A stretch of 64,000 bases of DNA from Escherichia coli (GCF_024223415.1 NZ_CP100503.1); one strand, 5' to 3'; numbered from the stretch's first letter, positions 33,882 through 52,057 are shown. Numbers and translations are program-made. Notes: generated from the sequence alone by a model not told the origin.

Positions 33882-34103
33882 ATGGTTAATGCCAATCCTT
33901 GCGCACGCCCTGAATTTATCTGGCGCTTTTACTCCTGCCAAAAACGTCACTATCACTTCGTTATTGCACCAACAGAAGATGAGGCCCGCTCTCAGCTTCC
34001 TGACGCCCCATGTATTTTCTCTGCCCGCTTTTCCACTGATTCGCGCAACTCTCTCAGTTACTGGTGCCTCCCTGTTAACGCTTCTGCTCAGGAGGGACTA
34101 TGA
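33882..34103 (+). CDS. icd: Icd-like small protein
   Basis: 73 aa from ATG at 33882; stop overlaps ant C start. Confidence 0.6.
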   Translation: MVNANPCARPEFIWRFYSCQKRHYHFVIAPTEDEARSQLPDAPCIFSARFSTDSRNSLSYWCLPVNASAQEGL

Positions 34104-35212: not shown

Positions 35213-35219
35213 TGGAAGA

Positions 35220-35245
35220 ATGCCCGGTTGATGCCGGGCAAAAGG
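35220..35245 (+). terminator. Hairpin after ant C (same as at 24607)
   Basis: ATGCCCGG-TTGATG-CCGGGCA. Confidence 0.5.
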
Positions 35246-35254
35246 GCGGAAAGT

Positions 35255-35503
35255 TTAATCAGCATTCAGGAGCAATGCGTTATCTATGATGATCTGCTCC
35301 CATTCTTCGAATGCCCGGTCGCGGACGCCCTGGGGAACACTGTTAGTTTTGAAATCGACGACCATACGCCATTTCCCGTCCGGACGGTACATGCGCAGAG
35401 CTTTACTTCCCCCTTCCCTGCGCACCTCAACGTTATGCTTGTCAGCAAACTCTTGTAATGCTCGTAGCGTCCCATGCTTTACTGTGTAGTATCGCTTTTT
35501 CAA
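35255..35503 (-). CDS. Hypothetical protein
   Basis: 82 aa; last gene of the minus-strand operon headed by the giant helicase gene. Confidence 0.4.
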   Translation of the reverse strand: MKKRYYTVKHGTLRALQEFADKHNVEVRREGGSKALRMYRPDGKWRMVVDFKTNSVPQGVRDRAFEEWEQIIIDNALLLNAD

Positions 35504-35940
35504 GTTTTCTCTCCAGCCTGTGCCAAGGCTTCAACTTCCAAATCGTAAGACTCAAACTCATAGTCCTGGTCGTCAACTTCTTCAGGCACTGGCAGTAAGT
35601 GCCAGGCTGAGTATATCTGACCATTATCAAAACGCTCCTGGCTGTAGAGCGTCGCGGCTATGAGTGTTAGCGCCGGGCGGTCATAACGGTAAATTTTGCG
35701 AACGTCACGGTCAACGAGACGACCGAAATTACCATAACCGCGCTCCAGTAATAATTTTTTAATTTCCGGCCAGTATGGACCATAGCTGCGGTACAGGCGG
35801 TGATTTTTCAGTAATCGCCCGCGTAGCCCTGACAGGAAGAAATCAACGTATTCGTCTTCTGTCTTTCCTAACAACGCTGTACGGAGTACCGCCTCAAGAT
35901 ATGTTTTATTCGGTTTTATTGTATCAGATAGTGTGGCCAT
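35500..35940 (-). CDS. Hypothetical protein
   Basis: 146 aa; overlaps downstream ORF by 4 bp. Confidence 0.4.
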   Translation of the reverse strand: MATLSDTIKPNKTYLEAVLRTALLGKTEDEYVDFFLSGLRGRLLKNHRLYRSYGPYWPEIKKLLLERGYGNFGRLVDRDVRKIYRYDRPALTLIAATLYSQERFDNGQIYSAWHLLPVPEEVDDQDYEFESYDLEVEALAQAGEKT

Positions 35941-35973
35941 ATTATGCGACGCCCGGCGAACCGGGCGCTCCTG

Positions 35974-38900
35974 TTATGCGTATTGTTGGATGACGGCCAG
36001 AACGTCCGCCACGTTGTGTTTTGTCTCGATAATCCACCAGTTACCCGGGAAATCGCTGTTCTTCGCCTTCGCTGGCAGCCAGCGAGCGCCGAATTTCGCC
36101 TTGATTGCGTCTTTCGCACGGAAAAGAACCCCTTTCATGCCTGAGGCTTCCTGAAGCCCAAATACCTCGCCAGCGGCGAATTTTGGTGCGTACATCATCT
36201 TCAGGTCGGCGGTGGATACGCGATAATTCAGGCCAAGAGACTGAGCTATGCTGGTGGCATCACCCTGTATTGATGATAACTCTTCTTGTTTCTCGTTTCT
36301 GGCGGCAATCTCTTCCTCCGTGATGTTGCCAAGGGCCAGGTTTATCCGATCAGCGTCGGCCTGTTTCTCTTCATCGGTGCGCCCGGCAAGAACCGTGTTA
36401 ATTCTCTGCAATATCTCCACATGATTCTTGCGCATGCTGAGCAATTCCGGCGTAACCTCGTTAAGATCCACCAGCCCAAGGATGGCAAGGTCGGAAAACA
36501 TTGATACCAGGTTGTAGGTCATGCGATAGCTGAGTTGACCATAGGCTGATGGCAACTTCACCGCATCCATTTGATAGGCATCCATAAATTTAGAGCCGTC
36601 GTTTACGACATCCGCTATTGCAGGTGTGATTTTCCCTGTGGTGGCGGCCTCCCTGATTGCTGTTACCCACGATTGAGTCAGCGCGGCGACTGCATGATTC
36701 AGATTGGCTTTCCGTTCTGCTGCGATGCGCGCGCTTGCTGCGTCCATTGCCTGCTTGATCTCGGCTTTATTGCTGTAAATGCCAATGGTGCCAAACTGTG
36801 CTGTGGTGATCTCATAATCTGACGCCCGGAACTCATTGGTACCGAAAATGGCATTGGTGACTTCAAGTTCAGAATCCCCGTTACGAGTAGCCCCCTGGCT
36901 TGTTTTTTCCGGCATTCTGGCGATCGCATCCGCTATTTTCTCCTGAATTGCTTCAGGGGATAGCGTATCTCCGTATGACGCGATTACATCGCCATAATTG
37001 GAGCCAAACAATTCAACCAGGAATGTTTCTGCCGAACGGATCTGGCGGTTATTCCCTTCCGACATCATACCAAGCACCCATTTTGCAATTGACGACTTCA
37101 GCGCGCCGTCACGGCGATCCGGGTAAACCGCATGCTTCAGTGGGTCCGTATAGGTACCAACAAAATCAATGCTATAGCCTGACTCTGTAGTCTGAACGCC
37201 GTATGAGTCAGTGATTTTGATCATGCCGCGCTGCTGGAAACGGTAGAAATCGTCACAGGAAATGATGTCGTTAATCCCGGCGATGGAGACGCCACCACTG
37301 ATTTTCTGCATAACAGCATCTTCATCGGGAGTTACATCCACCTGTTTATCCAGCGTCTTCACATCCCAGTTACCCGATTTGGTGCCTTTGAAGGTAAAGA
37401 TGATCTCCACGTCTGCGCGCTGGCTGTCGAAGTCCAGCGACTTAATGCGAACGATATCACCGGCACAATCGTAGTATTGGCCTACACGCCATGAGCGATC
37501 GCCGATAACAAGGAACTCACTCGCATGGTTAACCAGGTCAGGATCAACATCCAGAATGCCTTTATTTATTGCATCCTCCACCAGCGGGCGCAGGCGTTTG
37601 ATATCCGTCGCGGCCTTCTGAGTACGGTTCAATAATTTCTCATAGCGGGAGATGGCTTGAGAGATATTAGCCTTGCGCTGAATGGCGTTTTTCAACGACG
37701 CGCGATACTGTGCTAACAACATACGGTCTGTGTGATGGACGCTCCCCCAGCGGGCCTTCCAGTCTGCGTTATCAGCTGCTTTGGCCATTACCGCCTGTTT
37801 GAATTTAGCTACCTCGGCGGTGGTCTTTTCAAGTTCCGCTTTGCTTCGCTCTAATTCAGCGGTAAGTACCTCCACATCCTCGCCAGCTGCGTGCTGCGCC
37901 TTGATGTAGTTCTGAAGGTCGATAGTAGCCTGTTCTTTCTGGCGAGCGCGTTGCGCGGCTTTCGCCTTATCCATTTGAACCTGCATCATTGCCAGACGTT
38001 CGCCATCATCCTTAGCGGTATACATCTGCATTTCGATCATATCGTTGGCGTCGGCGTTCTCCATTTCAGACTTATCTGAGCGGAGGATATCGGAGATCCA
38101 GCCTGCTTTACGCTTCAGCGTCTTCAGTCGGTATTCATCGAAAGAACCCTTGCCGCAGTAGTAGTGAACGCGAACGCTTGCACGGTTGGAACCAACTCGG
38201 GCACCGCGACCGTTACGCTGTGCGATACTGGCTGGTGTCCATGGCAACGTCAGATGATGGATGTCAGTCGTTCCTCGATGCAGGTTGATACCCACCTCTG
38301 CCTTTTTGTTGCAGATGATGATCGGAGTCCGGCCCTCCTGGAAGTCGGCAGCAATCTTTTCCAGCCCACCCAGCGACATTTCATTTTGCTGCGCGATATA
38401 GGCGTCATACAGAGCCATTTGCTCGTTGTATTTCGCTATCTGTGCATCTGTTGGTTCATCCGGTAGCTCTTTCGGCGGTTTAACCGCTTTCAGTTTCTTA
38501 CCGGTTTTACCTGCCTCGGCAACCGTCTGAGCATTCAGGATCCCCACCTTTGAAGGTTCAAGGTTAAGAGCATTGCAGATAATGCGCTTGAGCTTCTGGT
38601 GTTGCGTTTTTTCATCGGTGAAGATGATTTGCTTACCTTCCGGGAAAAACTCCTTCAGCGTGGCGATCAGCTTCGCGTATTTCGGCGTAACGGGGTGAGT
38701 TACGGTCTGTTCGTCAATGCCAAACCTGGCCAGGCGCTTATTCACTTCCTGCTCGAACGCTTCCGGAACCTGCAACTGAATAAACTCGCCCTTATCTATC
38801 AGGGAGTATTGCGATTGCTGCGTGATCGAATCATCACTGTCGTCGTCTTCGCTGGTGGCTTGTTTAGGCAAACTGTCCGCCAGCTGCTGCACCGCATCGG

Positions 38901-40863
38901 CGTACTCCGGCAGGAAACGATAGGTGATCCTGCGATAGTACAGGTCCATGTCAGTACATACGCGGTCCATATCCCTGATTATTGAGAAGATCGGACGGGC
39001 TTTCTCGTGCTCAATCACGCCGTCTTCATTGACCGAGGTCGTTACGCCATTGTTGGCTTTGGCTGCCGCTTCCGCCTGCTGACGCAATTCTTCATACGCC
39101 GCCAGTTGTTCTTCCGTAAGTGGTGCATCCTGCTGGTGTTCGTCCAGTTCCGGGATCTCCACGGTATCCTTAACGTCTTCCGCCGTTTTAAGCGTTGTCC
39201 AGCGATGGAATATGCCGCGCAGCGCATCAAGGTTTTCAAAGCCCACCAGCGCCATTTTTTCTTCAACTTCACCGCTAATTTTCTGTACCGTTTCCAGCCT
39301 GGTCTTGCCGAAGAATTTAACGAAGTCATCAGGACCGTAGATCCCCATCTTCTGCCAGTATTCCTTCGGCAGCACATGAGAAAGCATGTTGTATGCATCG
39401 ATCGGGGTGTTAACGACTGGCGTTGCAGTCAGGAGAACCGGTCCGCGCCCACCATTCTTTTTCATCAGGTACGCGTTTTTAATTGCCATATCCCGCGCCG
39501 ATTGCGCCACCGCGCTGGTGGGCAGATAGGCCAGTTGTGACGCTTCGCGACCATTTTTATAGCTATTGCGGTAGTTGTGACCTTCGTCAGCGATCACACT
39601 ATCGAAGCCCATATCCTCAAAGTACGGATACTTCTCTGCTTTTTCGGTGCCGGTATCTGAATACTCCGACAATACCCGGCGACGCGCGGCCTCTTTGCGG
39701 TGGGAGTCGGAGTCCATTGCGCTGGCTACGCGCCCGGCGGCAACGAAGTCATAAAGCATATCCTGTGCATGCTCATCTACGGTGTCATCACGTAGCGGAA
39801 TGCGGGCGTATTGTTCTTTGGTAAACACGACTGCACGGTAATTTGAGTGCGGGATCGCGTTCATCCGCGCCGTGATAGTGGCTTCATCTGCCAGCTTAAG
39901 AGCATCGCGCATAACTGGAGTGCCATCAGTACCAAGAACAGGTTTACCGTTCTCATTGAGCACCGGCACCTGGCGAATCTGATCGCCATCCATCAGCACA
40001 TCAAGACCGACGAACAGGTAGTTACTGAATGCCTCTTCACTCAGGAACTCTTTTGCTTCGTAATACCAGTTTTCCAGCACTGATTTAGGCACTACATACG
40101 CAGTACGGGTGGAACGACCGTTCTCATAGTTGAACGCCTCAAGCGCCAGCGCGGTCGTGGTTTTACCCAGCCCGGTACCGAAGCCCAGGATGCCGCGCCC
40201 ATCTTCGGACAGTCGGCGCACCTCGCTATTCTGGTAATCAAATGGCTGTCGCTTACCGCTTAATCCCTTCAACCCAAGCGGATCGCCAGAGTGTTCATAC
40301 GGGATATTGCTATTGAACACATCGTTGTATTTGGCAACCAGCTCATCGTAGCGATCGTGCGTCTTGATCCACTTATTGAACTGGTCCTCAAGCAGTGCCA
40401 TCTGCTCGCGGTAGCCGTTCGCCGTCGCGCTATCTTTGCCACCGATACGCGCACCATTGAGATACTTTTCCAGCTGTGCCGGGAACCCGGTCGCGTTTTC
40501 ACCTGATTTACGGTCCCACTCGTAGCGGATCTCGCCTGTTTCTTTATCCTTGCGCTGGACGACACCGTATCGGTGCCCGACGAACAGACCATCACCACCG
40601 TGATAGGTGTCAGAAACCATTTCGTCGCCTTCCAGCTGCACTGACTGCACATAGCGAAGATCCGGATAGCCGTTTTCCTGCAAAAATTCCAGAATGACGG
40701 AACGGTCGAACCAACGGCTATTGAGCTTAAAGCGGATATTCTCTGCTGGCGTCTTGATGCGCTTCTCTTCGATCGCTGCCAGCTGATTAAGGACGTTGTT
40801 CTTTACCCAGTGCGCCGTAAAGCCCCGTCCTTCAGGTCGGGGATATAAGGCGCGGTTTTCCAC
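35974..40863 (-). CDS. Large SF2 helicase-domain protein, 5'-truncated by IS insertion (DarB-like anti-restriction candidate)
   Basis: 1629 codons; Walker A GFGTGLGKTT, DEGH box, TATP, QRNGRGARVGS; first 19 codons (40807-40863) are IS left-end sequence, host-derived part starts at 40806. Confidence 0.5.
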   Translation of the reverse strand: MENRALYPRPEGRGFTAHWVKNNVLNQLAAIEEKRIKTPAENIRFKLNSRWFDRSVILEFLQENGYPDLRYVQSVQLEGDEMVSDTYHGGDGLFVGHRYGVVQRKDKETGEIRYEWDRKSGENATGFPAQLEKYLNGARIGGKDSATANGYREQMALLEDQFNKWIKTHDRYDELVAKYNDVFNSNIPYEHSGDPLGLKGLSGKRQPFDYQNSEVRRLSEDGRGILGFGTGLGKTTTALALEAFNYENGRSTRTAYVVPKSVLENWYYEAKEFLSEEAFSNYLFVGLDVLMDGDQIRQVPVLNENGKPVLGTDGTPVMRDALKLADEATITARMNAIPHSNYRAVVFTKEQYARIPLRDDTVDEHAQDMLYDFVAAGRVASAMDSDSHRKEAARRRVLSEYSDTGTEKAEKYPYFEDMGFDSVIADEGHNYRNSYKNGREASQLAYLPTSAVAQSARDMAIKNAYLMKKNGGRGPVLLTATPVVNTPIDAYNMLSHVLPKEYWQKMGIYGPDDFVKFFGKTRLETVQKISGEVEEKMALVGFENLDALRGIFHRWTTLKTAEDVKDTVEIPELDEHQQDAPLTEEQLAAYEELRQQAEAAAKANNGVTTSVNEDGVIEHEKARPIFSIIRDMDRVCTDMDLYYRRITYRFLPEYADAVQQLADSLPKQATSEDDDSDDSITQQSQYSLIDKGEFIQLQVPEAFEQEVNKRLARFGIDEQTVTHPVTPKYAKLIATLKEFFPEGKQIIFTDEKTQHQKLKRIICNALNLEPSKVGILNAQTVAEAGKTGKKLKAVKPPKELPDEPTDAQIAKYNEQMALYDAYIAQQNEMSLGGLEKIAADFQEGRTPIIICNKKAEVGINLHRGTTDIHHLTLPWTPASIAQRNGRGARVGSNRASVRVHYYCGKGSFDEYRLKTLKRKAGWISDILRSDKSEMENADANDMIEMQMYTAKDDGERLAMMQVQMDKAKAAQRARQKEQATIDLQNYIKAQHAAGEDVEVLTAELERSKAELEKTTAEVAKFKQAVMAKAADNADWKARWGSVHHTDRMLLAQYRASLKNAIQRKANISQAISRYEKLLNRTQKAATDIKRLRPLVEDAINKGILDVDPDLVNHASEFLVIGDRSWRVGQYYDCAGDIVRIKSLDFDSQRADVEIIFTFKGTKSGNWDVKTLDKQVDVTPDEDAVMQKISGGVSIAGINDIISCDDFYRFQQRGMIKITDSYGVQTTESGYSIDFVGTYTDPLKHAVYPDRRDGALKSSIAKWVLGMMSEGNNRQIRSAETFLVELFGSNYGDVIASYGDTLSPEAIQEKIADAIARMPEKTSQGATRNGDSELEVTNAIFGTNEFRASDYEITTAQFGTIGIYSNKAEIKQAMDAASARIAAERKANLNHAVAALTQSWVTAIREAATTGKITPAIADVVNDGSKFMDAYQMDAVKLPSAYGQLSYRMTYNLVSMFSDLAILGLVDLNEVTPELLSMRKNHVEILQRINTVLAGRTDEEKQADADRINLALGNITEEEIAARNEKQEELSSIQGDATSIAQSLGLNYRVSTADLKMMYAPKFAAGEVFGLQEASGMKGVLFRAKDAIKAKFGARWLPAKAKNSDFPGNWWIIETKHNVADVLAVIQQYA

Positions 40864-41280
40864 CTAACCAGGTGTTTGCTGTTGTTCAATGTATTGGCGG
40901 ATGATGGATATTGGTGCGCCACCGCAGCTACTGGCAAAATAGCTGGGACTCCATAAAACGCCTTTGTAGTAATATCGGGCTGCAATATCTGGTCGATCTC
41001 GTCGCAATAATCTACTCGATACGCCCTTGAGACTGTTCACCAGGCTGGATATCGCCAATTTGGGGGGATAGTTAATTAGCAGGTGAACGTGATCTCGTTC
41101 TCCATCCATTTCAACCAGTTCAGCTTCAAAATCAGCACATACACTTGAAAAGTAAGTGCGTAGTTTTTCTATTGCGTCATGGTCAAAAATCTGACGTCGG
41201 TATTTTGCGACAAAGACCAGGTGAACGTGCATCAGGAAGACGCAGTGTCTTCCACGTCGGATATCAGTTTCTTTTTTTAT
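40864..41280 (-). pseudogene. tnpA: IS200-type transposase tnpA with start codon changed to ATA
   Basis: Copy 3 has ATG at the equivalent position (63558-63560); copy 2 has ATA at 41278-41280; ORF track only finds a TTG-initiated 178-aa extension. Confidence 0.5.
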
Positions 41281-42511
41281 GGACCAAAGTATAATTTGGC
41301 TTATGAAACGACTACAAGCTTTCAAATTCCAGTTAAGACCAAATGGACAGCAGGAGCGTGAAATGAGGCGCTTCGCGGGCGCATGTCGTTTCGTTTTCAA
41401 TCGTGCTCTGGCGCTTCAGAATGAGAATCATGAGGCCGGGAACAAATATATTTCTTATGCAAAGATGACTTCCTGGCTGGTTGAATGGAAAAATGCTACT
41501 GAAACGCAATGGCTTAAAGATTCTCCCTCACAGCCATTGCAGCAGTCACTGAAAGACCTTGAGCGAGCCTACAAAAATTTCTTTCAGAAGCGTGCCTCTT
41601 TTCCCCGCTTCAAAAAGCGGGGACAGAATGATGCATTCCGCTATCCGCAGGGCGTTAAGCTCGACCAAGGGAACGGTCGTATTTTTCTGCCAAAACTTGG
41701 CTGGATGCACTACCGGAACAGCCGTCAGGTCTCGGGGATTGTGAAAAACGTCACTGTCAGCCAGTCCTGCGGTAAGTGGTACATCAGTATTCAGACAGAA
41801 AGTGAAGTATCAACTCCGGTTCACCCTTCAGCATCAATAGTCGGTCTGGATGCAGGCGTGGCTAAACTCGCCACGCTGTCAGATGGCACAGTCTTTGAGC
41901 CTGTAAACAGTTTTCAGAAAAACCAGAAGACGCTGGCGAGACTTCAGCGACAGTTAAGCCGCAAGGTCAAATTCAGCAACAACTGGCAGAAGCAGAAATG
42001 CAAAATACAGCGACTGCATTCCCGTATCGCAAATATCCGCAGGGACTACCTTCACAAAGTCACAACGACCGTCAGCAAAAACCACGCCATGATAGTCATT
42101 GAGGATTTGAAGGTCAGTAACATGTCAAAGTCAGCAGCGGGTACGGTCAGCCAGCCGGGGCGCAATGTCCGGGCAAAATCAGGTTTAAACCGTTCGATAC
42201 TGGATCAGGGCTGGTATGAAATGCGCCGTCAGCTTGAGTACAAGCAGCTCTGGCGAGGCGGTCAGGTGCTTGCGGTTCCGCCAGCGTACACAAGCCAGCG
42301 TTGCGCGTGCTGTGGTCATACAGCGAAAGAAAACCGCCTGTCACAAAGTCAATTCAGATGCCAGGTATGTGGATATACAGCGAACGCCGATGTAAACGGC
42401 GCTCGTAACATTTTAGCGGCGGGGCACGCCGTTCTTGCCTGTGGAGGGATGGTGCAGTCAGGCCGCCCGTTGAAGCAGGAACCCACCGAAATGATTCAGG
42501 CGACAGCCTGA
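41279..42511 (+). CDS. tnpB: TnpB
   Basis: 410 aa; C-terminal 230 aa nearly identical to tnpB at 28201-29433, N-terminal half divergent. Confidence 0.85.
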
Positions 42512-42592
42512 ACGTAGCAGGAATCCACGTCCTTCAGGGCGTGGAGGATGTCAATGGAGCCTCCCCTTCTCTGCCGACGTTCAGGGGGGTTT

Positions 42593-43630
42593 ATGAAAAC
42601 ACCTCTCGTCACCCGTAATGACATAGCCGAAGCGATCGCCCTGCATACTGCCTGTATGCCGACACGGGAGATCCCCGGCGCAATTGCCAACTATTTCATG
42701 ATAACCAGACGTTTTTATACCCGAACAGATAAGGCTGTGATCAACAAGCTACTGATAGCCGAGATCAGGGATTATTTGATTGAACAAGGACGTCTACGTT
42801 ACGCAACAGTGGCAGCAGAAATGAGAAAGGAGGCACATAGAATGACCGGTAATAATTTAAATGTTGAAAAACCAGCACCTGTTGCTTCAGCTACGCCAGC
42901 ACCAGCCGTGAATATCATCCCCAACACCGGAGACACAATCGACAGCCTGACACTGTTAAAGATGGTCAATGAAGCGCGTAAGTTATGTGGGGAACCAGAG
43001 GTTCGGAACAACAAATTCATCGAAAAAATACTCGATGAGCTTGATGGTGAGCACTACACAAAAAGTGTAGTGGAAAAAATGAACAAAACATCAATGCTTG
43101 TCATAACCATGACTTTCAAACAAGCCCTGCGAGTCGCCGCGCGCGAGTCAAAAGCGGTCCGCCGTTCGCTGATCGACAAACTGGAAGAATTACAGCAGGC
43201 AAACTCACCTACCCCATCGATCCCCCAGACATTACCAGAAGCCCTACGCCTGGCTGCCGAGTTGGCAGAACAGAAAATGCAGCTGGAACAACAGCTGGTG
43301 GCCGCAGCCCCTAAAGTCGATTTTGCCGACCGGGTATCAGTGGCCAATGGAATCCTGATCGGGAACTTTGCAAAGGTCGTTGGACTTAAGCAAAACGCCC
43401 TTTTCTCATGGTTGCGCCAGAACGGCATTCTCATGGCTTTTGGTGCGCGCAAAAACGTACCGCGCCAACAGTACATCAACGCCGGGTATTTCACGGTGAA
43501 AGAAGTGGTGCTGGATGATGAAAATGGCTACCAGATACGGCTGACGCCCCAATTAACGGGTAAAGGCCAGCAGTGGTTAACTCGCAAGCTACTTGATGCT
43601 GGTTTGTTAAAACCAGTAGCAATAGGTTAA
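42593..43630 (+). CDS. ant: Antirepressor Ant paralog D at the native position upstream of kilA
   Basis: 345 aa from MKTPLVTRND; preceded by 38 bp remnant of icd 3' end (…LPFSADVQGGL*) then the IS right end. Confidence 0.7.
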   Translation: MKTPLVTRNDIAEAIALHTACMPTREIPGAIANYFMITRRFYTRTDKAVINKLLIAEIRDYLIEQGRLRYATVAAEMRKEAHRMTGNNLNVEKPAPVASATPAPAVNIIPNTGDTIDSLTLLKMVNEARKLCGEPEVRNNKFIEKILDELDGEHYTKSVVEKMNKTSMLVITMTFKQALRVAARESKAVRRSLIDKLEELQQANSPTPSIPQTLPEALRLAAELAEQKMQLEQQLVAAAPKVDFADRVSVANGILIGNFAKVVGLKQNALFSWLRQNGILMAFGARKNVPRQQYINAGYFTVKEVVLDDENGYQIRLTPQLTGKGQQWLTRKLLDAGLLKPVAIG

Positions 43631-43643
43631 CAAAAGAAAAAAA

Positions 43644-43667
43644 CCTGCCAGCAAACTGGCAGGTTTC
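43644..43667 (+). terminator. Rho-independent terminator after ant D
   Basis: CCTGCCAG-CAAA-CTGGCAGG followed by TTTC. Confidence 0.6.
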
Positions 43668-43708
43668 TGAGCAGATCGTCCAACCCGATCTGGATCGAGC
43701 CAGAAAAA

Positions 43709-43725
43709 TTTGCTCTAATAAATTT
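43709..43725 (+). promoter_or_regulatory. C1 operator upstream of kilA-repL
   Basis: TTTGCTCTAATAAATTT. Confidence 0.65.
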
Positions 43726-43794: not shown

Positions 43795-44595
43795 ATGCAA
43801 CAAACATTCAATGCGGATATGAATATATCAAACCTTCATCAAAATGTCGATCCTTCAACCACTCTGCCTGTTATTTGTGGTGTTGAAATTACGACCGACC
43901 GCGCTGGCCGTTACAACCTTAATGCTCTACACAGAGCGAGCGGACTCGGTGCCCATAAAGCGCCAGCTCAATGGCTAAGAACGCTGTCAGCCAAACAGCT
44001 CATCGAAGAGCTGGAAAAAGAAACTATGCAGAATTGCATAGTTTCGTTCGAAGGCCGTGGCGGCGGCACTTTTGCCCATGAATTGCTCGCTGTGGAGTAC
44101 GCAGGCTGGATTTCTCCCGCGTTTCGGCTGAAGGTAAACCAGACATTTATCGACTATCGAACCGGAAGATTACAACCTGCTATTCCGCAGAGTCTCCCTG
44201 AAGCTCTCCGTTTGGCTGCCGACCTGGCAGAGCAAAAGCAACGGCTGGAGCAAAAAATGCTTATGGATGCACCTAAAGTCGAATTCGCTGAACGCGTTGC
44301 TACCGCCAGCGGGGTTCTAATCGGCAACTATGCCAAAGTGCTCGGCCTGGGCCAAAACTATCTCTTCACCTGGTTGCGTGATAACGGAATTCTGATCGCA
44401 ACCGGTGAACGCAGGAACGTCCCCAAACAAGAATACATATCTCGTGGGTATTTCACCCTTAAAGAAACCGTGATCGATACAAGCAATGGAAGCAGGATTT
44501 CTTTCACGACTCGTATAACCGGCAAAGGTCAGCAGTGGCTGATGAAGCGATTGCTTGATGCTGGTGTGCTGGTACCTGTCGCGGCAACGCGCTAA
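43795..44595 (+). CDS. kilA: KilA (KilA-N domain plus KilA-C domain)
   Basis: 266 aa, size and position as in P1; C-terminal domain homologous to Ant C-termini. Confidence 0.75.
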   Translation: MQQTFNADMNISNLHQNVDPSTTLPVICGVEITTDRAGRYNLNALHRASGLGAHKAPAQWLRTLSAKQLIEELEKETMQNCIVSFEGRGGGTFAHELLAVEYAGWISPAFRLKVNQTFIDYRTGRLQPAIPQSLPEALRLAADLAEQKQRLEQKMLMDAPKVEFAERVATASGVLIGNYAKVLGLGQNYLFTWLRDNGILIATGERRNVPKQEYISRGYFTLKETVIDTSNGSRISFTTRITGKGQQWLMKRLLDAGVLVPVAATR

Positions 44596-44624
44596 CAGAC
44601 GTAGTAAGAACCACCAGCATTGTA

Positions 44625-45470
44625 ATGCTGGCTAAAGTCACTTTCCTGAGCTGTATAACGATGAGCGATTTTACTTTTTCTGGCTATGAATTGGCCTGCT
44701 TTGTAACACACTCCGGTCTATCCCGTAGCGCCGGGCATATCCTGTCGCAATGTGCAAATCTCGCGGCAACAACCAGTGAATACTTCATTCACAAGCCTCA
44801 CCGCCTGATCGCGGCAGAAACTGGTTATAGCCAATCAACCGTCGTTCGTGCATTCCGTGAAGCTGTAAACAAAGGAATTCTGTCTGTAGAGATTGTTATC
44901 GGCGATCACCGTGAACGTCGCGCTAACCTGTACCGGTTTACACCATCCTTTTTGGCCTTCGCACAACAAGCCAAAAATGCGCTGATTGAAAGCAAATTAA
45001 AGATCTCTTCAGCGGCAACCAAGGTTAAAGCTGTTCTCGCTAAGACATTGGCTTTATTTAATTTTTTATCCACACCCCCATGTCAAAATGATACCCCCTC
45101 CCCCTGTCAGGATGACGTGGCAATAAAGAATAAGAAGTCAGAAATTAAAAAAACAAAAAGATCAGTTTCCGGCGGTGCCGGAACGACCAGCCTCAAAAAA
45201 CTGACTTCATGGATCGCCGAGGCAAAAGCAAAGGCTGACAATCTGCGGTTATCCAAAAAACGCGCTCAAAAACATGAGTTCAAGCAGAAAGTAGAGGCGG
45301 CAGCGCGGAAATATGCTTACCTGAAGGACAAGCGTTCTCCTGATATTGGCGGGATATCAAACTTCGATAATCTGCCGCATTGCATGACAGTAAACGAAGC
45401 TCTTAATGCGGTATTAGCCAAAAATAAAGATAACGAACAATGGGGTATACCGGCAGGATTCAGAGGGTGA
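44625..45470 (+). CDS. repL: Lytic replication initiator RepL
   Basis: 281 aa ORF directly after kilA; size and position as P1 RepL. Confidence 0.7.
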   Translation: MLAKVTFLSCITMSDFTFSGYELACFVTHSGLSRSAGHILSQCANLAATTSEYFIHKPHRLIAAETGYSQSTVVRAFREAVNKGILSVEIVIGDHRERRANLYRFTPSFLAFAQQAKNALIESKLKISSAATKVKAVLAKTLALFNFLSTPPCQNDTPSPCQDDVAIKNKKSEIKKTKRSVSGGAGTTSLKKLTSWIAEAKAKADNLRLSKKRAQKHEFKQKVEAAARKYAYLKDKRSPDIGGISNFDNLPHCMTVNEALNAVLAKNKDNEQWGIPAGFRG

Positions 45471-45473: not shown

Positions 45474-45490
45474 ATTGCTCTAATCTGGAG
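45474..45490 (+). promoter_or_regulatory. C1 operator at the repL stop
   Basis: ATTGCTCTAATCTGGAG. Confidence 0.5.
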
Positions 45491-45520
45491 TCACCTGGCG
45501 TTTTCAGTTTGAGGTCGGAG

Positions 45521-45766
45521 ATGCAATCTGATTTTTTACAGTTAGCGATCGCTTTTGCAGGATATGTTTGTATTGGCTTCTGTGTATACATGATCAGCCG
45601 AAGAATGCTTGTCGATATCGACCGCAAAGAACGAACAGAGGAGATCTTAGTATGGATTTTCTTTGGCGCGGTCTGGCCATTAGGGATCATGTTTGCTGCA
45701 ACATTTCTTCTGATGTGGATATTCACCCTTCCTGGTGATTTCTATAGAAAAAAAGCCAGACATTGA
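45521..45766 (+). CDS. Small membrane protein (two predicted TM helices)
   Basis: 81 aa from ATG at 45521 with GAGGTCGGAG RBS; the ORF track starts it upstream at 45440. Confidence 0.4.
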   Translation: MQSDFLQLAIAFAGYVCIGFCVYMISRRMLVDIDRKERTEEILVWIFFGAVWPLGIMFAATFLLMWIFTLPGDFYRKKARH

Positions 45767-45948
45767 TACAATCGTTACGGGTGCTTGAGGCTATCTGCTT
45801 CAGGCATTACCCGAAAAGCAGATAGAAGAAAGCCCCAGATAACATTACGCGTCCTGCAAGACGCTTAACATTAATCTGAGGCCATCTCTATGCTTAGCAT
45901 ACGTAGATTAACCCTCTCCCCTTTTAAGGAGCAAGGAATTTTTTACTG

Positions 45949-46581
45949 CTATGCCGCATTTCCAATTATGGATTCAGCGACCAGAACAACCCCATGCTTA
46001 CTTCGATCTGGGTGTTCACTCCATATCTCGGATTCAGGAATACTTACCCCGTCATAGCAAACACGTTCGCCGTCAAACGGGTAATACTGAGCGGCATCGG
46101 TGTCAAGGATAAACACTTTTAGCTCGGAAGAGCGACGGGCGATGTGTTGCCAAAGAGCTTTTCCACCTTCGTATTGCTCATTATCACTGAGCAAAACAAC
46201 ACCAGCTTTTGAGGCTACGGTTTCGTAAACAAAAGTAGCTAAACCGACATCCCGGACGGTTCCATCAACCACGATACCTTCAATCTGGGCAACATCGCTA
46301 TCCTCCCAGAACTTCCTTACCAGTACGCCTTCAAGCTGCGGGCGACGTTGAAGTTCAAGAGTAGCGACAACCTTATGGCGCATATCACCATCGATAATAG
46401 AAGGCGCAGCCTCTATTACAGCTGCAAATGGGGTTTTGGAATCCCATATAACCTGGTAAAGCACACCCTGGATGGTAACTCCGTCCAGGATCGAAAATCG
46501 ACGAGCGACAGTACCCGGGGAGTACGACATTGGAATCACAGCCATTTTAGAGTCCCCCTTTAACAGTACAGGCACAAACAT
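45949..46581 (-). CDS. Hypothetical protein
   Basis: 210 aa ORF. Confidence 0.4.
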   Translation of the reverse strand: MFVPVLLKGDSKMAVIPMSYSPGTVARRFSILDGVTIQGVLYQVIWDSKTPFAAVIEAAPSIIDGDMRHKVVATLELQRRPQLEGVLVRKFWEDSDVAQIEGIVVDGTVRDVGLATFVYETVASKAGVVLLSDNEQYEGGKALWQHIARRSSELKVFILDTDAAQYYPFDGERVCYDGVSIPESEIWSEHPDRSKHGVVLVAESIIGNAA

Positions 46582-46673
46582 CTACCTCAATAATTGTAGT
46601 TTATTAGAACATTAATAATCTAACATAAAACTCCAGACAATGTTATCGATGCATGTTTATATAAAATAGTTAT

Positions 46674-46697
46674 AAAAAAAGCTCCCGAAGGAGCTTT
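46674..46697 (-). terminator. Rho-independent terminator
   Basis: On minus strand hairpin AGCTCC-TTCG-GGAGCT followed by T7. Confidence 0.6.
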
Positions 46698-46716
46698 AAA
46701 ATACAAGGGATGACTC

Positions 46717-47226
46717 TTAATCCCACTCAATCCAGTTGTAGACGATACGAAGTGACGGGCGCACAGCGGCAGTCACATCTTCGGTACTAAAGTCGATTGC
46801 ATCACTGTAGATTTTGCAGTCCAACATTTCAATTGTTGTAGCAGCTTTTGTCACAGCGTTAACCCCGGAAGATTTGGATTCAGGGGTCGCAGCCATCGTG
46901 ATATCAACATAGTCCTTCGCCGCAATGCGATCCTTGATGAACTGAAGAATATCGCCTTCGATAGTCTCCACGCACTGGACCTGGATTTCCCCAGAGTTTC
47001 GAATTGGTCCGTGCTGGTTGAACTTCACACCATTCGGACCATAGTCCTCCACATCCTCGCGGGTCATTTCAGGAATTTGCGACGTGCGAACCAGTACGCT
47101 GATATCTTCATGGCCTGCAAAAGTGAGCTGGAATTCAGAAGATACCAGTCGTTCGCCTTTGGCCGCGTTGGCAGTATAGCGGCCCTTAATAAATTTACGG
47201 TTTCCCTTAGTGTTATTGTGCCCCAT
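46717..47226 (-). CDS. Hypothetical phage structural protein (tail tube-sized)
   Basis: 169 aa; last gene of operon starting near parS. Confidence 0.35.
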   Translation of the reverse strand: MGHNNTKGNRKFIKGRYTANAAKGERLVSSEFQLTFAGHEDISVLVRTSQIPEMTREDVEDYGPNGVKFNQHGPIRNSGEIQVQCVETIEGDILQFIKDRIAAKDYVDITMAATPESKSSGVNAVTKAATTIEMLDCKIYSDAIDFSTEDVTAAVRPSLRIVYNWIEWD

Positions 47227-47237
47227 ATAAAATCCTT

Positions 47238-47819
47238 TTACTGGAACGCCCGAACAATATCGGAGCTGTTATATATCGAAGAACCGGTCAACTGGAGGTT
47301 GACGGTGTTTTTCAGGAAATGCCCATTGCTGTCCCTGGGCGCATCGAGATCGAAACTTATGTCCTGGATAGCGACATCAATGATGTTGATCCGGCGACCA
47401 ATGTTTAGCGTCACACGCTCCGGGATTCGACCACCAATACTGGCATCTTTGAGTTCCGGGCTAATCATCGCTGACAATGCGGCGATAGCTCCTGAAACCT
47501 CCGTGAATGGGTCAAACAAAGCGATGAAAGTTACTGGCAGCGTGAAAGTCGGCGGTGTTCCCCCTTCCCAAACCATTAAGCTGTTCCAACGAGCAACAGA
47601 CGTTGTTTCAGTACCAACCTGCGCAAAACCACTGAAGGCACCAGCAACAGAACCCATGGACATACCAGTAAAAGGTGCTTCCCAATTCTGGGCCATGTTC
47701 ATTGCCGCCCCCTGGCTGATATATCCGGTAACCTGGTACTGAGAGTTCGTTAAAGTAACTTTCAGAAATGGCGATACACCGTCAGCCTGGCTGTAAACCC
47801 CATAAGGTATAGGTGCCAT
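47238..47819 (-). CDS. Hypothetical phage structural protein
   Basis: 193 aa. Confidence 0.35.
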   Translation of the reverse strand: MAPIPYGVYSQADGVSPFLKVTLTNSQYQVTGYISQGAAMNMAQNWEAPFTGMSMGSVAGAFSGFAQVGTETTSVARWNSLMVWEGGTPPTFTLPVTFIALFDPFTEVSGAIAALSAMISPELKDASIGGRIPERVTLNIGRRINIIDVAIQDISFDLDAPRDSNGHFLKNTVNLQLTGSSIYNSSDIVRAFQ

Positions 47820-47854
47820 TCAAGTTAAAGGCCGGAGTTCTCCGGCCTCCTCCT

Positions 47855-48670
47855 TTAGCCGAGGCGCTTACGGCGCAGTTTCATTGACTTTTTGCGGGCC
47901 AGTTTTGCCGCGCCGGTCTGGGCTTTACGACGCGCTTTTTTCAGCGCCGATTTTTGAGCCGCAGTCAGACGTTTTTTACGCAGGCGTTTACGGATGAGTT
48001 TGATCTCACCGTTACGAACAACCTTCTTAAATGCTTCAGTCAGCATTTCATCAGAAGTGCCAGCAACAACAAACGCCGCTTCCAGTTCGTCACGGTCGTC
48101 GCTATCTAAACCAGCGATAGAGGCACCAACATCAGCAGCTGCGTCGTCGTCTTCATCGTCAGCCAGTGCTTCGATCAGGTCATCATCTACACCGCATGCT
48201 GCGAGGAAGTCAGCAACATTTGCCCATGCTTCGTTATAGGCATCGTCCTGTTCTTCTGTAACTTCGGAGTCGTCGTCATCAGAGATACCAGCGATAGCCT
48301 GAACGAAACCATCAAGGGAGTCGAAAGTCAGATCACCGCTATCAGCCCAGGCGAAAACGGCGTCGGCCGCATCACTCAACGCATTCTGCATAGCACTTCG
48401 ATTTGCAGCTTCCAGAATCATCTGGTGCGCCTGTTCGACGGTCCATTCTTTACCGTCTTTCCCTTCCAGGATTTGCTCAGGAGCCGGGGCAGATGGAACG
48501 TTATCGTTAGTCTGTGCCGCCGGTTCCGGATTATTATTAATAACCGGATCTGTTGGCGGTTCGGCGCTTGCTCGGGCAGACTCCATCAGCTGCACAGGAT
48601 CAGAGTTCAAAGCGAAACGGGACAGTCCATTCCCCAAAAATGCCCCGGATTGAAAAAAGTTTTTGCTCAT
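47855..48670 (-). CDS. Hypothetical protein with acidic centre and basic K/R-rich C-terminus
   Basis: 271 aa. Confidence 0.35.
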   Translation of the reverse strand: MSKNFFQSGAFLGNGLSRFALNSDPVQLMESARASAEPPTDPVINNNPEPAAQTNDNVPSAPAPEQILEGKDGKEWTVEQAHQMILEAANRSAMQNALSDAADAVFAWADSGDLTFDSLDGFVQAIAGISDDDDSEVTEEQDDAYNEAWANVADFLAACGVDDDLIEALADDEDDDAAADVGASIAGLDSDDRDELEAAFVVAGTSDEMLTEAFKKVVRNGEIKLIRKRLRKKRLTAAQKSALKKARRKAQTGAAKLARKKSMKLRRKRLG

Positions 48671-48679
48671 TGTATTCCC

Positions 48680-50269
48680 TTACTTAATAAGCAGCGGTAC
48701 GCCCTGGATACGACGGGCTACGCCAGTCGGGCAGCAGGCCCAGACTACTTCCCATTTATCGAATTCCGCCTGCGTAACTTTCAGCACATACGGTTCTGTA
48801 CCGTCAGCATCGGGATCACGAGGAGCCACCAGAGCGCCGGAGGCGACAAAGCGATCTAAAAGTTTGGTCATCCCTTTAGTCAGGCCAGCCGCAGTAATAC
48901 CGTCCGGGCTATGCTTCATCTGTCGGGCTAACTGGACAAAGAAACGGCTGATTGCATTCATCAGGGATGGGACGTGCTGGAAGTGCAGATAGTTATCCTG
49001 CGTGCAGCAAGTTAAAGCATCGTCGATGATCATCTGGCCAGAGGTGCCAACAGATACTTTATTGAGACGGCCCTTGACCATTGCTTCTTCGTCCGGGGTA
49101 TCTTCCGGATACAGCGGTTGAATTGACGCACGAGCAATGACGGCACGTTCTTCACCAGCCGGTGAGTAATGCCAACCGCCGACATCAGAGTTTTTCTTGA
49201 CGCCATGAGCTTTCGCCGCATACGCCACGCCAGACAGACCAAAGACCACACGGGATTGGGTCCATTTGTCTTTGCAGGAGAACGGATAGTGATAGAAAGA
49301 ACAGCTTACATAATCGGTACCAAGTAAACCGGTATCTTCAACAGCAGACAGCGCTTCCGTATACGTCAATGTCGGTTTGACATCAAAGAAGCCATCAATC
49401 AGGCGATCAGAACAGATATTACCTAACGCGGTGATAGCCGCATTGTCATAGCAGCCCAGGCCAAGAACAGCGGTGTACATGTACGGCGCATTGTTCAGCA
49501 CTTTCACCGCACGCAGGTACGCAGCGGTTGAGATTTTCGACTGATCACCGTTGGTACCACCAGTGAACGCCAACGATTTTTTGTTTGTTACTTTCGCTGT
49601 AGAAATCAGATCTTCATTAACAACCGCGCGCAGATATTTAGAACGGGCTTCCAGAGCCGTAGGCAGATAACACAAGCGGCCCATATCATCTTTCGCTTCT
49701 TCCGCCAAAGACACAGTGTGTGTCTCCAGGGTCGTTACCACGCCGAGCGAAGTCGTCTGGGTCAGTTTCAGGAGGAAGCGTTCATTACCTGCGCTGTCCG
49801 CTGTTGCCATTTCGATGGTTAACTCACGGGTAGGTGAAATACACGGATCACCATCATCAACGTAGATAGCAAAGGCTTCGCCGCTATCAAGTTCAATTTC
49901 AGAACCGTATGGCAACGCACTGTAAGCCGGTTCGCCTGATTCATCGAACATAATAACCGGGAACTTCGCATCATCCGGAACAGCACGGACAACATAACCA
50001 GACGTTTGCTGAATAGCTTCGTATACATGGCGAATTGGTTCGAACTGTGAGCCGGAAGACGGCTTCAGCGGTTCGCCGAGAACATCTTCGTAATTGGACT
50101 CAGTAACCGCAAGAACAGTAAACGGCTTGCCACGCGCAAATACGCCAATACCAGCCCACAAGCTGCTATTTAATGCAACACCGGTAGATAACATCGCATC
50201 GGTATTGATCGGGCTAACCGCGACGCCGGATGCATTACCTAATGACTGTTGAATTGAATATTGAGACAT
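48680..50269 (-). CDS. Putative tail sheath protein
   Basis: 529 aa; size and position (between major structural gene and smaller tail genes); assignment tentative. Confidence 0.4.
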   Translation of the reverse strand: MSQYSIQQSLGNASGVAVSPINTDAMLSTGVALNSSLWAGIGVFARGKPFTVLAVTESNYEDVLGEPLKPSSGSQFEPIRHVYEAIQQTSGYVVRAVPDDAKFPVIMFDESGEPAYSALPYGSEIELDSGEAFAIYVDDGDPCISPTRELTIEMATADSAGNERFLLKLTQTTSLGVVTTLETHTVSLAEEAKDDMGRLCYLPTALEARSKYLRAVVNEDLISTAKVTNKKSLAFTGGTNGDQSKISTAAYLRAVKVLNNAPYMYTAVLGLGCYDNAAITALGNICSDRLIDGFFDVKPTLTYTEALSAVEDTGLLGTDYVSCSFYHYPFSCKDKWTQSRVVFGLSGVAYAAKAHGVKKNSDVGGWHYSPAGEERAVIARASIQPLYPEDTPDEEAMVKGRLNKVSVGTSGQMIIDDALTCCTQDNYLHFQHVPSLMNAISRFFVQLARQMKHSPDGITAAGLTKGMTKLLDRFVASGALVAPRDPDADGTEPYVLKVTQAEFDKWEVVWACCPTGVARRIQGVPLLIK

Positions 50270-50329
50270 AACTTTCCCTGTTATGCGCCCCGCACGGGGG
50301 CGCTATGTTAAACGGAGAACTTCCCCTGA

Positions 50330-52057
50330 TTACTCAGAGTCACCGGCATCAATCGTGTCGCCGCTTATGAAGTTAAGCCCGCCTTTTTTGGCCATTGTCA
50401 GCGTTACACGAGTGAAGTAATCAGCGCCGTTGCGTGGGTGCATATCGTTGATAGCCGAACCCCACAGCGTGGTACGGTTGACCAGCGCCGGAGTGGTCGG
50501 ATGCTGGAACGGGATGGCCGGGACAGCATCACCAGTCACGAAGCCTGCTTTACCCGGATTTTCATCACGGACGTAGCACAGCACATCCATCGAGCTGAAC
50601 TGAATGTTCTCTGTCGTTAAGTTCTTACAAATACCAGCAGGTACTTCGTACACTTTCACGTTACCGAACAGGGTACCGATGTAGTGAACATACGGAGTCT
50701 GGATATAGTCTTCGGCTGGCTGGAAGAAATCCTTCGGCAACTGTTTGAAGAAAGATGCTGCATCAGCACCAGCAAACATCCCCATCGCACCAGAAGATTT
50801 AACGCGCTCAATAATGTCGCGATATACAGTCTGGAATTTGCCACGAATGATGGTTGCCCATACATCAAAGGACTGGTTAACCGGCAGAGCGATGTCAAAG
50901 GTGTCGTTCGCAAGAGTACGCCAGATCATGATGCGAAGACGCAGCATATCCTGTTCATGAGACAGGTATTCCTTCAGGGTGCGGAACTGTAGGGAACCCA
51001 GGTCCAGACCAAATTCACGCTGTGCTTCATACGCCGCCTGTACCGTGTGCTCAGCCGCGATAACGAACTGGCTTGGGAACAGGGTGTATTTCTTCATTTC
51101 GTGGTTGATCAGCGGGATCAGCTCAGGAGCGGCTTCAATATTGATTTCCGTCTCAATTGCGATCTCAGTGCCTTTATCCGGCGCTTTGGAGAACGACAGG
51201 GCAATCTGACCAATGTTGTAGTTCAGAGAGCAGGTAACAGTGATTTGCTCACCAGCAGCATTAGTAAACGAGTGAAGTAGGCTGCCGGAACCGTTATCAA
51301 CAACAGACTTAATACGGTTAACGTAGATATTAGTGCGACCTTTTCGGATTGGTACATTCTGGCCTTCGAAGTCTTCCATCTTGAAGGTTGCGGTTTTGCT
51401 GGTGCCATCGGAGCTTGCCACCAGCACATAGCGGCGGCGTAACTGGCTGTACACACCGACGGATTGCATGTCCAGAACATCACCAGCAGCATAAGAACCA
51501 AAAGAGGAACCTGCCACGTTAAAGACTTCATAGATGTCGGACTGGTCACGCGTAACCGGAATGAAGGTACACGCATCAGCGGTAGCTGCCCCCAACTGAA
51601 CAGGCAGGATCATCGCGAGGAATAAAGGCAGACGCATAACACCGTCAGAAACGCTCATCATCTCTGCTGCGACGGATTCCAGCATCGCTTTATTAGTGGC
51701 ATCCATGCTATTGCGGGTAGACTCAATCAGGCAGTTTTCCAGCGTCTGGTGGCAGGAGGCCAGAATTTCCGGACGCGGCATAGATTTATGTGCTGCGGCG
51801 TAGTCAGCCAGTGCACTTGCCCACGCTGTAGCGATTTGAGCGGTGGCATTATCAGAGATACCCGCAAAAACCGGGTCTTTACGTGCAGCTTCAAGGATAG
51901 ATGCGGCACGCGCGGCATCATCTTTAATGAATTGGTTATCAGTACCGAACTGCGCAGTGCTTGCCCAGCCAAGCACAGCTTTAGAGCGTTTTGCGATATC
52001 TGCAATACGATTCTGGTATTCGCGTAAGTTACTCAATTTACTCTTCCTTAAACACAA
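50330..52057 (-). CDS. Putative major head/structural protein (gene adjacent to parS, P1 gene 23 position)
   Basis: 575 aa ORF starting next to parS; assignment by position only. Confidence 0.4.
   Translation of the reverse strand: MCLRKSKLSNLREYQNRIADIAKRSKAVLGWASTAQFGTDNQFIKDDAARAASILEAARKDPVFAGISDNATAQIATAWASALADYAAAHKSMPRPEILASCHQTLENCLIESTRNSMDATNKAMLESVAAEMMSVSDGVMRLPLFLAMILPVQLGAATADACTFIPVTRDQSDIYEVFNVAGSSFGSYAAGDVLDMQSVGVYSQLRRRYVLVASSDGTSKTATFKMEDFEGQNVPIRKGRTNIYVNRIKSVVDNGSGSLLHSFTNAAGEQITVTCSLNYNIGQIALSFSKAPDKGTEIAIETEINIEAAPELIPLINHEMKKYTLFPSQFVIAAEHTVQAAYEAQREFGLDLGSLQFRTLKEYLSHEQDMLRLRIMIWRTLANDTFDIALPVNQSFDVWATIIRGKFQTVYRDIIERVKSSGAMGMFAGADAASFFKQLPKDFFQPAEDYIQTPYVHYIGTLFGNVKVYEVPAGICKNLTTENIQFSSMDVLCYVRDENPGKAGFVTGDAVPAIPFQHPTTPALVNRTTLWGSAINDMHPRNGADYFTRVTLTMAKKGGLNFISGDTIDAGDSE

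Follow-up and report, generated by a model that had tools for sequence, protein, structure and literature searches.

The native immI locus of the phage-plasmids P1 and P7 is arranged in the order Oc4 - P51a/b - c4 - icd - ant1/ant2. The mechanism of icd and ant has been treated by Citron & Schuster (1990), Biere et al. (1992) and Riedel et al. (1993). According to the P1 annotation, C4 RNA acts on the a2/b2 sites located before icd, and the neighbouring gene kilA is lethal when derepressed. Expression of ant apparently requires icd (P1 annotation; PMC8201110), and permanent or enhanced expression of ant1 has been linked to the obligate virulence of P1vir (PMC8201110).

Insertion sequences (IS) of the IS608 group insert 3' of a TTAC tetranucleotide, end in TCAA and leave no target duplication, and the last 16 nt or so of the TnpB guide RNA (reRNA) are copied from the flank of the right end (PMC8612924). 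Insertions of IS609 have been described in P1-like plasmids, together with extra icd-ant modules and IS-mediated loss of the tail or immI regions (Venturini et al. 2019; PMC6906374). In these plasmids, the ends of IS609 were given as TTAT/TCAA (PMC6906374).

Here we describe the immI locus beside kilA (locus D) in a 64-kb stretch of Escherichia coli DNA, hereafter the window, in which an IS stands directly upstream of an otherwise intact ant gene (ant D). We consider it probable that this locus is the joint of a deletion of approximately 33.3 kb with an IS at the joint, that ant D has been stranded there and is silent or leaky, and that the plasmid is probably defective. An earlier sequence-only reading, which saw in the locus an immI module decapitated by an IS and an antirepressor freed from control, is partly supported.

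A P1-type phage-plasmid with three IS200/IS605 copies

P1 (NC_005856) covers nearly the entire window in BLAST comparisons (Table 1), which identifies the window, at the level of sequence, as a P1-type phage-plasmid. Matches to the C1 operator number 15 in the whole window against 0.32 expected by chance and include those at 22932, 32181 (minus strand), 33548 and 43709; the window scan found none in 35000-43700. The C1 operator closest to ant D is OrepL, which is located downstream of ant and controls kilA-repL, the C1-controlled lytic replicon adjoining ant D. In a domain search, the kilA product contains KilA-N plus ANT domains. The hairpin between ant D and OrepL terminates leftward transcription that starts at the kilA antisense promoter; on the plus strand it is at best a weak terminator.

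Besides locus D, the window contains three extra immI modules (A-C), each with its own C1 operator, C4 RNA, icd and ant. One is situated between pacB and c1, and the other two replace ref and res-mod. An Rfam scan detected C4 RNAs at 23124-23211, 31911-31996 (minus strand) and 33749-33834 only, and none near 42.5 kb; c4-a1b1 hits were likewise confined to modules A-C.

Three IS200/IS605 copies (A, B and C) are present. Copy A (28153-29964) is a different IS200/IS605 element, which creates a Cre-IS fusion ORF. This ORF was found exactly in 227 index blocks, and five of the six places shown lie on contigs of 91-98 kb, the sixth on one of 51 kb. Most contigs with the Cre-IS fusion share the three extra immI modules of the window (among the six, one is without the third module and one has the first truncated), and five of the six have darB called at 2,255 aa. 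A multi-immI backbone therefore appears to be common, as judged from these contigs. Copy C, oriented like copy B, begins at 63087, where it interrupts dmt (P1 68049), and runs past the window end. Copies B and C have one mismatch in 914 nt, which argues for recent activity of the IS.

Copy B, the element next to ant D, shares approximately 93% of its DNA sequence with IS609 copies in E. coli and 99.7% with copies found on plasmids of about 64 kb. It encodes a Y1 TnpA and a TnpB with HTH_OrfB_IS605, OrfB_IS605 (RuvC) and Cas12f1-like Zn-ribbon TNB domains, and an alternative ATG for tnpB is found at 41279. Residues 3-376 of TnpB match the ISDra2 TnpB structures 8BF8/8EXA (E=5.6e-57). Imperfect subterminal hairpins occur at each end, CCCCG-N10-CGGGG on the left (40823-40842) and CCACG-N10-CGTGG on the right (42525-42544), and the loops of both begin with TCCTTCAGG; there are no terminal inverted repeats and no target duplication. 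The right end reads ...GGAGGATGTCAA, also given as ...CCACGTCCTTCAGGGCGTGGAGGATGTCAA, with the final TCAA at 42554. Y1 TnpA, the TnpB domains, TTAC/TCAA and the subterminal hairpins together place copy B in the IS608/IS609 group of the IS200/IS605 family.

Table 1. Features of the window and their coordinates
Feature	Position in window	Strand	Basis
P1 73030-84482	40-11480		BLAST vs P1
phd through pacB	17692-22928		BLAST vs P1
c1, coi, lox	24633-26377		BLAST vs P1
cre	27127-28152		BLAST vs P1
mat	32259-33098		BLAST vs P1
lxc, ulx, 3' two-thirds of darB (P1 9743-15301)	35248-40806		BLAST vs P1
darB', C-terminal 1,610 codons of DarB	35974..40806	-	98.5% identity to P1 9743-15301
TTAC target tetranucleotide, part of darB, directly 5' of IS left end	40803..40806	+	P1 homology extends to 40806
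IS609-like IS200/IS605 element, copy B, 1,748 bp	40807..42554	+	Limits set by break in P1 homology
tnpA, Y1 HUH transposase	40864..41400	-	PF01797 Y1_Tnp, E=4.6e-42, profile positions 1-121 of 121; coordinates of the longest ORF, true start codon uncertain
tnpB, RNA-guided nuclease homologue, 402 codons, pointing to ant1	41303..42511	+	PF12323, PF01385, PF07282
Candidate guide-RNA (omegaRNA/reRNA) scaffold, tnpB 3' end and IS right end into flank	42384..42565	+	Sub-threshold Rfam hits
Junction ATG (last IS base plus TG of icd), in frame with ant1, adds 13 codons	42554..42556	+	Sequence
icd remnant, last 13 codons (WSLPFSADVQGGL) and stop overlapping ant1 ATG	42555..42596	+	Alignment to P1 and intact relative L004
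icd tail, ant1/2, kilA, repL (P1 48650-51585)	42555-45484		BLAST vs P1
ant1 (Ant D), 345 codons, intact; Shine-Dalgarno GGGGGG at 42584-42589	42593..43630	+	94% identity to P1 Ant1
ant2, in-frame internal start, own AGGAGG ribosome site	42842..43630	+	Equals P1 ant2 at 48937
13-bp hairpin, T run on minus strand only	43639..43668	-	Terminator scan; sequence
C1 operator OrepL (formerly Op53), controls kilA-repL	43709..43725	+	One mismatch to operator consensus; P1 annotation
kilA (43795-44595), repL (44625-45470)	43795..45470	+	97% identity to P1
pmgF to parA	46675-54578		BLAST vs P1
oriR to dmt	56828-63086		BLAST vs P1

The flanks of copy B

The two flanks of copy B come from different parts of the P1 map. 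On the left, the IS adjoins darB (P1 15301) with the junction TTAC/CCAGTG at 40803-40812, which is identical to the corresponding junction of copy C. On the right, the IS ends in ...GATGTCAA and is joined directly to the base found just after TTAC of icd in P1 and in the intact relative L004 (P1 48650). Indeed, both P1 and L004 read ...CACTTAGTTAC/TGGAGCC... (AGTTAC/TGGAGCC) exactly where homology of the window restarts at 42555. Copy B thus bears a canonical insertion signature on either side, each independent of the other: a TTAC in darB and a TTAC in icd, at sites that lie 33.3 kb apart in P1.

According to BLAST against P1, no part of P1 15302-48649 is present anywhere in the 64-kb window. 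The missing interval comprises the 5' third of darB, prt, pro, lyz, lydA-E, ssb, the dar operon and cin; the S/U/R tail-fibre genes, gene 16, bplA, sit, tub, pmgA-C and sim; and Oc4, the c4 promoters, c4, the C4 target sites and icd codons 1-60. In terms of function, portal, protease, lysis, dar, cin, tail-fibre, baseplate, tube and sim genes are missing from the window, and what remains is probably a P1 derivative that is defective and exists as a plasmid only. The remaining darB' is devoid of the N-terminal ~645 codons (the methyltransferase part) and of the PdarB promoter; its product has SNF2/helicase domains only in a domain search, and DarB of relatives is 2,255 aa long.

The proposal that the IS decapitated immI thus stands as far as the loss of the immI head is concerned, but a simple insertion into immI is rejected, as the left flank is darB at P1 15301 and the two flanks are not contiguous in P1. 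Because each flank has its own TTAC signature, the sequence points to the IS as the scar of a recombination between two copies, or of an assembly collapse across them.

What remains of immI, and the Ant D protein

The module beside kilA has lost the C1 operator Oc4 (formerly Op51), both c4 promoters, c4 and the a/b target sites, as well as the ribosome site of icd and 60 of the 73 icd codons, and with them a complete icd coupled to ant1. The operator/promoter head of immI (P1 48140-48223) is absent from the window. What is retained is the distal half of the operon, with nested ant1/ant2, the ant1 Shine-Dalgarno sequence, an ANT (KilAC) domain and the position upstream of kilA-repL.

Most structural claims of the sequence-only reading hold. 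The IS right end is at 42554, where homology to P1 and to intact relatives restarts on the next base, and 38 bp (42555-42592) separate it from the ant1 ATG at 42593. The absence of c4, of the C1 operator and of most of icd is confirmed by the Rfam scan, the operator scan and the alignment to P1, and ant D does keep a ribosome-binding site of its own. The count of 12 residual icd codons has to be corrected, since translation of 42555-42596 in the icd frame gives 13 sense codons and a stop.

The same reading had allowed that Ant D might be inactive. This suggestion is not supported by the protein itself, which is exactly identical to the allele located behind a full icd in intact P1-like contigs of about 90 kb. 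The exact protein occurs in 554 index blocks of public assemblies, and in all ten places displayed it is encoded on a P1-like contig (89-94 kb; one of 55 kb) directly behind a 73-codon icd. By its sequence, Ant D is a wild-type allele, with an ANT/KilAC domain (E=1.3e-30); the in-frame ant2 start with its AGGAGG site has also been conserved, and decay to a pseudogene is rejected on the basis of exact identity to a widespread allele. Ant D would be expected to bind and inactivate C1, a property predicted only from its 94% identity to P1 Ant1.

It had also been supposed that the other immI modules might compensate, which through C4 is not the case: no C4 target motif is present on any possible ant D transcript. 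C4 target heptamers or motifs were not found in 42500-42900, and the C4 RNAs of modules A-C have a'/b' loops different from those of the native D-type c4 of L004. Since the a2/b2 sites are deleted at locus D, C4 RNA cannot regulate ant D, and compensation by the C4 RNAs of modules A-C is rejected on account of both the missing sites and the differing loops.

Would ant D be expressed?

A wild-type antirepressor gene whose C4 targets are all gone invites the interpretation proposed in the sequence-only reading. In an extended form of that interpretation, read-through from tnpB and its guide RNA would express Ant D constitutively, outside C1/C4 control; C1 would be partly titrated, kilA-repL and other C1-controlled genes would be partly derepressed, and the plasmid would tolerate this because the lysis and morphogenesis genes are deleted. 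We regard this model as unlikely, even though several observations speak for it.

As had been claimed, tnpB is directed at ant1 with no intervening terminator. The terminator scan found no plus-strand terminator-like site between the tnpB stop and ant1 (42511-42593), and the right-end hairpin is rejected as an intrinsic terminator because no T run follows it. Furthermore, the reRNA biology reported for TnpB (PMC8612924) implies transcription across the right end: as the guide RNA includes the flank, transcription must cross 42554. Weak guide-RNA-like Rfam hits on the plus strand, all below the gathering score, are consistent with such a transcript: HgcC (E=0.007, 24.1 bits vs a gathering score of 50), which reaches 42565, RAGATH-18 (E=0.015, 28.1 bits vs 44.9) and sot0042 (E=0.049). 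The fold of the IS right end has a z-score of only -0.98 and is not distinctive, and RNA-structure predictions in general are weak evidence. Two possible entry points for ribosomes can also be named, the ant2 ribosome site, which is predicted to be open (opening energy 4.1 kcal/mol), and the junction ATG, which is in frame with ant1 and follows an IS-borne GGAGGA (42543-42548) by 5 nt.

Against constitutive expression stands, in the first place, the lack of a credible plus-strand promoter in the IS: none was found at 9 of 12 consensus matches, and only 8/12 matches occur, far upstream. Transcription of the flanking darB' operon is directed away from the IS. Translation of ant1 would also meet obstacles, as its Shine-Dalgarno sequence is predicted to be paired (unpaired probability 0.05; opening energy 14.0 kcal/mol here vs 13.7 in the native context) and that of the junction ATG is predicted to be mostly paired (unpaired probability 0.10; opening energy 19.7 kcal/mol). 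The coupling to icd is gone, and a paired ant1 Shine-Dalgarno sequence fits the reported dependence of ant on icd. In addition, the region 42560-42740 is mildly C-rich and might allow Rho termination if untranslated. Finally, the adjoining kilA, lethal when derepressed, is intact, and the link between enhanced ant1 expression and the obligate virulence of P1vir argues against strong expression of Ant D from a plasmid that is maintained. Ant made without regulation would be expected to be toxic.

According to these predictions, ant D is most likely a wild-type gene that was stranded not long ago and is silent or, at most, leaky. The only rightward transcription to reach ant1/ant2 would be read-out from tnpB and the guide RNA, which would probably be weak and would favour Ant2 over Ant1. 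C1/Lxc would hold repression, and each of the three complete immI modules would stay under the control of its own C1 operator and C4 RNA. The word 'silent' is possibly too strong, and some synthesis of Ant is plausible, because guide-RNA transcription would cross the right end, no terminator intervenes and the ant2 site is predicted to be open. Were Ant D to be expressed without C1/C4 control, the plasmid would represent a natural experiment in which a P1-type plasmid tolerates an unregulated antirepressor beside an intact kilA-repL. Such expression of ant D would, moreover, be a natural example of a gene driven by guide-RNA read-out from an adjacent IS200/IS605 element.

A possible guide RNA derived from icd

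The position of the IS right end suggests a further possibility. The guide RNA of copy B would correspond to the icd tail (TGGAGCCTCCCCTTCT...), and TAM plus target (TTAC+TGGAGCC) would together constitute the uninterrupted icd site as it occurs in common wild-type P1-like plasmids. The nuclease would then be aimed at the immI locus of relatives and lead to exclusion or IS homing, accompanied by low, unregulated synthesis of Ant2/Ant1 from read-out. TTAC followed by the 20-nt tail TGGAGCCTCCCCTTCTCTGC occurs once in each of ten intact relatives (L004-L013) and in a reduced relative (L020; CP122667.1), and within the window only sites with five mismatches are found, in modules A-C. If this were true and TnpB active, a plasmid without native c4 immunity would cut the intact immI of competing or superinfecting P1-like elements. 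Proposed from sequence correspondence, this scenario is distinctly unlikely.

Origin of the joint

The simplest origin compatible with the sequence is that two copies inserted in one orientation and later underwent homologous recombination. The flanks show that one IS copy had inserted 3' of TTAC in darB and a second, in the same orientation, 3' of the TTAC that is conserved at icd codon 60. Recombination between these homologous copies would have left a single IS, with the darB flank at its left end and the icd flank at its right end, and would have removed P1 15302-48649, approximately 33.3 kb.

Neither the product nor the intermediates of this pathway were encountered elsewhere. No ancestor was found in which only icd or only darB is interrupted by an IS, and exact look-up of the predicted Icd(1-60)-IS fusion protein gave no record. 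No megablast record in phages, PLSDB plasmids or complete E. coli genomes spans either junction, and an exact-pattern scan for GGATGTCAATGGARCCTCCCCTTCTC showed it to be absent from the viral, genome and metagenome contigs searched. Similarly, exact look-ups of the 360-aa and 358-aa fusion ORFs, of the 1,629-aa DarB' and of the 410-aa/402-aa TnpB returned no record, and a protein homology search with the DarB' N-terminus retrieved fragments only. A 1,625-aa DarB (L016) was considered as a trace of this junction and dropped, as there is no start codon 15 codons upstream; it is probably a frameshift or nonsense variant. The darB-IS-icd joint (darB codon ~646 to icd codon 61) has no second instance in the collections searched.

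The absence of the junction, of the fusion ORFs and even of the TnpB allele from all collections searched, and with it of independent confirmation, speaks for the joint being an assembly artefact, in which near-identical IS copies in darB and icd flank the 33 kb and were merged by the assembler. At least two nearly identical IS copies, with one mismatch in 914 nt, do occur in the window. However, three IS200/IS605 copies within one continuous 64-kb sequence suggest that repeats were resolved, and reduced P1-like plasmids of approximately 66-78 kb are real and common. We consider an artefact very unlikely; even in that case, ant D would remain cut off from c4 and icd by the IS at icd codon 60. 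Least probable of all is a relocation of the 33-kb segment, for instance by re-integration at copy C, which would make the phage rearranged but complete and only the decapitation of ant D real: the window does end inside the same-orientation copy C, the right flank of which is outside it, but two successive recombination events would be required, the excised circle would have neither the plasmid replicon (repA/oriR) nor the lytic replicon (repL/oriL), both of which are outside P1 15302-48649, and the c4-icd5' fragment would stay unlinked from ant D.

Comparison with known systems

We thus return to a joint formed by recombination as the preferred reading of the locus. With immI of P1/P7, locus D shares the site by kilA-repL with OrepL, the nested ant1/ant2, the ATGA overlap with the icd stop, the ant1 Shine-Dalgarno sequence and an Ant protein 94% identical to that of P1. 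It differs in that nothing upstream of icd codon 61 is left, including a1/b1, a2/b2 and the ribosome site and start of icd. Because the operator, the promoters, c4, the target sites and the icd start are missing, locus D is unable to function as an immI module.

Uncoupling of ant from C4 through a lesion in the leader of immI, as at locus D, is also known from P1vir/P1 virs (PMC8198154, PMC8201110). In contrast to locus D, where both are deleted, these mutants keep the promoters and icd and overexpress ant. Given this deletion, the expected default at locus D is loss of ant expression, not gain.

Copy B shares with the IS609/IS608 group the Y1 TnpA and TnpB, the hairpins, TTAC, TCAA and the lack of target duplication. 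In simple insertions of this group the flanks would be contiguous in a relative, whereas those of copy B (darB and icd) are not contiguous in any relative. Their distance of 33.3 kb in P1 points to copy B as a recombinant between two insertions.

The closest parallels are reduced P1-like plasmids. pJIE250-3, pSvP1 and pTZ20_1P (Venturini et al. 2019) and CP122667.1 have a P1 backbone with IS-associated loss of the tail, the C-segment or immI. Additional icd-ant modules, replacing res-mod and lying between pacB and c1, are a further feature that the Venturini derivatives and CP122667.1 share with the window. In pJIE250-3, immI was lost together with repL, whereas in the window repL-kilA and ant are kept and c4 and icd are lost. 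CP122667.1, a reduced 66-kb P1-like derivative, has an intact native immI. In annotation, it would be wrong to score the element in the window as an intact, inducible P1-like prophage, and ant D is to be regarded as an orphaned gene. As the evidence stands, the locus documents the erosion of P1-like phage-plasmids into plasmid-only derivatives by IS609-like elements, a process already described, and the joint itself is probably an IS-IS recombination scar of an ordinary kind.

Extra immI modules and IS insertions

Apart from the native immI locus (D) upstream of kilA, the window contains three extra immI modules (A, B and C), all of them complete, and the features that accompany them are listed below.

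Features of the window outside the native immI locus
Feature	Position	Strand	Remark
Block without P1 counterpart	11480-17692	-	Between P1 84482 and P1 87970
Extra immI module	22932-24599	+	Between pacB and c1
IS copy A	28153-29964	-	IS200/IS605 element distinct from copy B
Extra immI module	30581-32197	-	Replaces ref
Extra immI module	33548-35212	+	Replaces res-mod
darB remnant	35974-40806	-	N-terminal ~645 codons (methyltransferase part) and promoter gone
Region replacing P1 rlfA and rlfB	45485-46675		
IS copy C	63087-64000	+	Third IS in the window; extends past its end

A C1 operator, a C4 RNA recognised by Rfam and the genes icd (73 codons) and ant are present in each of the three extra modules. 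The a' and b' loops of their C4 RNAs are combinatorial variants: module B carries the P1 version of the a' loop and module C the version of the native D type, and the b' loop differs in every immI module. The same three-module layout is present in most of the relatives identified by an exact match to the Cre-IS fusion protein described below (227 index blocks). Just 5' of the module A C4 RNA lies an Rfam match to the Hfq-binding RNA isrK (23023-23100, + strand; 60.8 bits). Additionally, precomputed Pfam hits place an ORF6N domain besides ANT in the Ant proteins of relatives that match modules A and C.

Copy A is inserted 8 nt before the stop codon of cre, which alters the C-terminus of the protein and gives a Cre of 350 aa. 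This insertion is old and widespread, since 227 index blocks list the exact fusion protein. Copy A has a left part and a tnpA unrelated to those of copy B, the IS609-like element between the darB remnant and the icd tail; the tnpB genes of the two copies are ~96% identical in their 3' halves. Between copies B and C there is a single mismatch in 914 nt. Copy C lies within dmt, which encodes the Dam-like methyltransferase of P1, and disrupts this gene at P1 68049, 3' of TTAC. The remaining darB ORF extends into copy B, where it reaches a GTG at 40863 that immediately follows the stop codon of tnpA.

Comparison with P1

The block without P1 counterpart contains three large ORFs on the - strand (1,038, 412 and 520 aa), which resemble those of a type I restriction-modification system; in relatives, an HsdM of 518 aa is encoded beside phd. 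Within the region replacing rlfA and rlfB, Rfam identifies the sok antitoxin RNA (45779-45953; 91.4 bits), and a Hok/Gef peptide is encoded by relatives at this position. The repA/incA region (54578-56828) gave no match to P1 by megablast or blastn, and the plasmid replicon is of another type than that of P1. The right end of copy B (42415-42554) aligns in inverted orientation with P1 61346-61484 at 79% identity over 140 nt; in the P1 reference, this stretch lies between parA and incA. The similarity suggests that P1 itself carries an old IS609-like right-end relic there.
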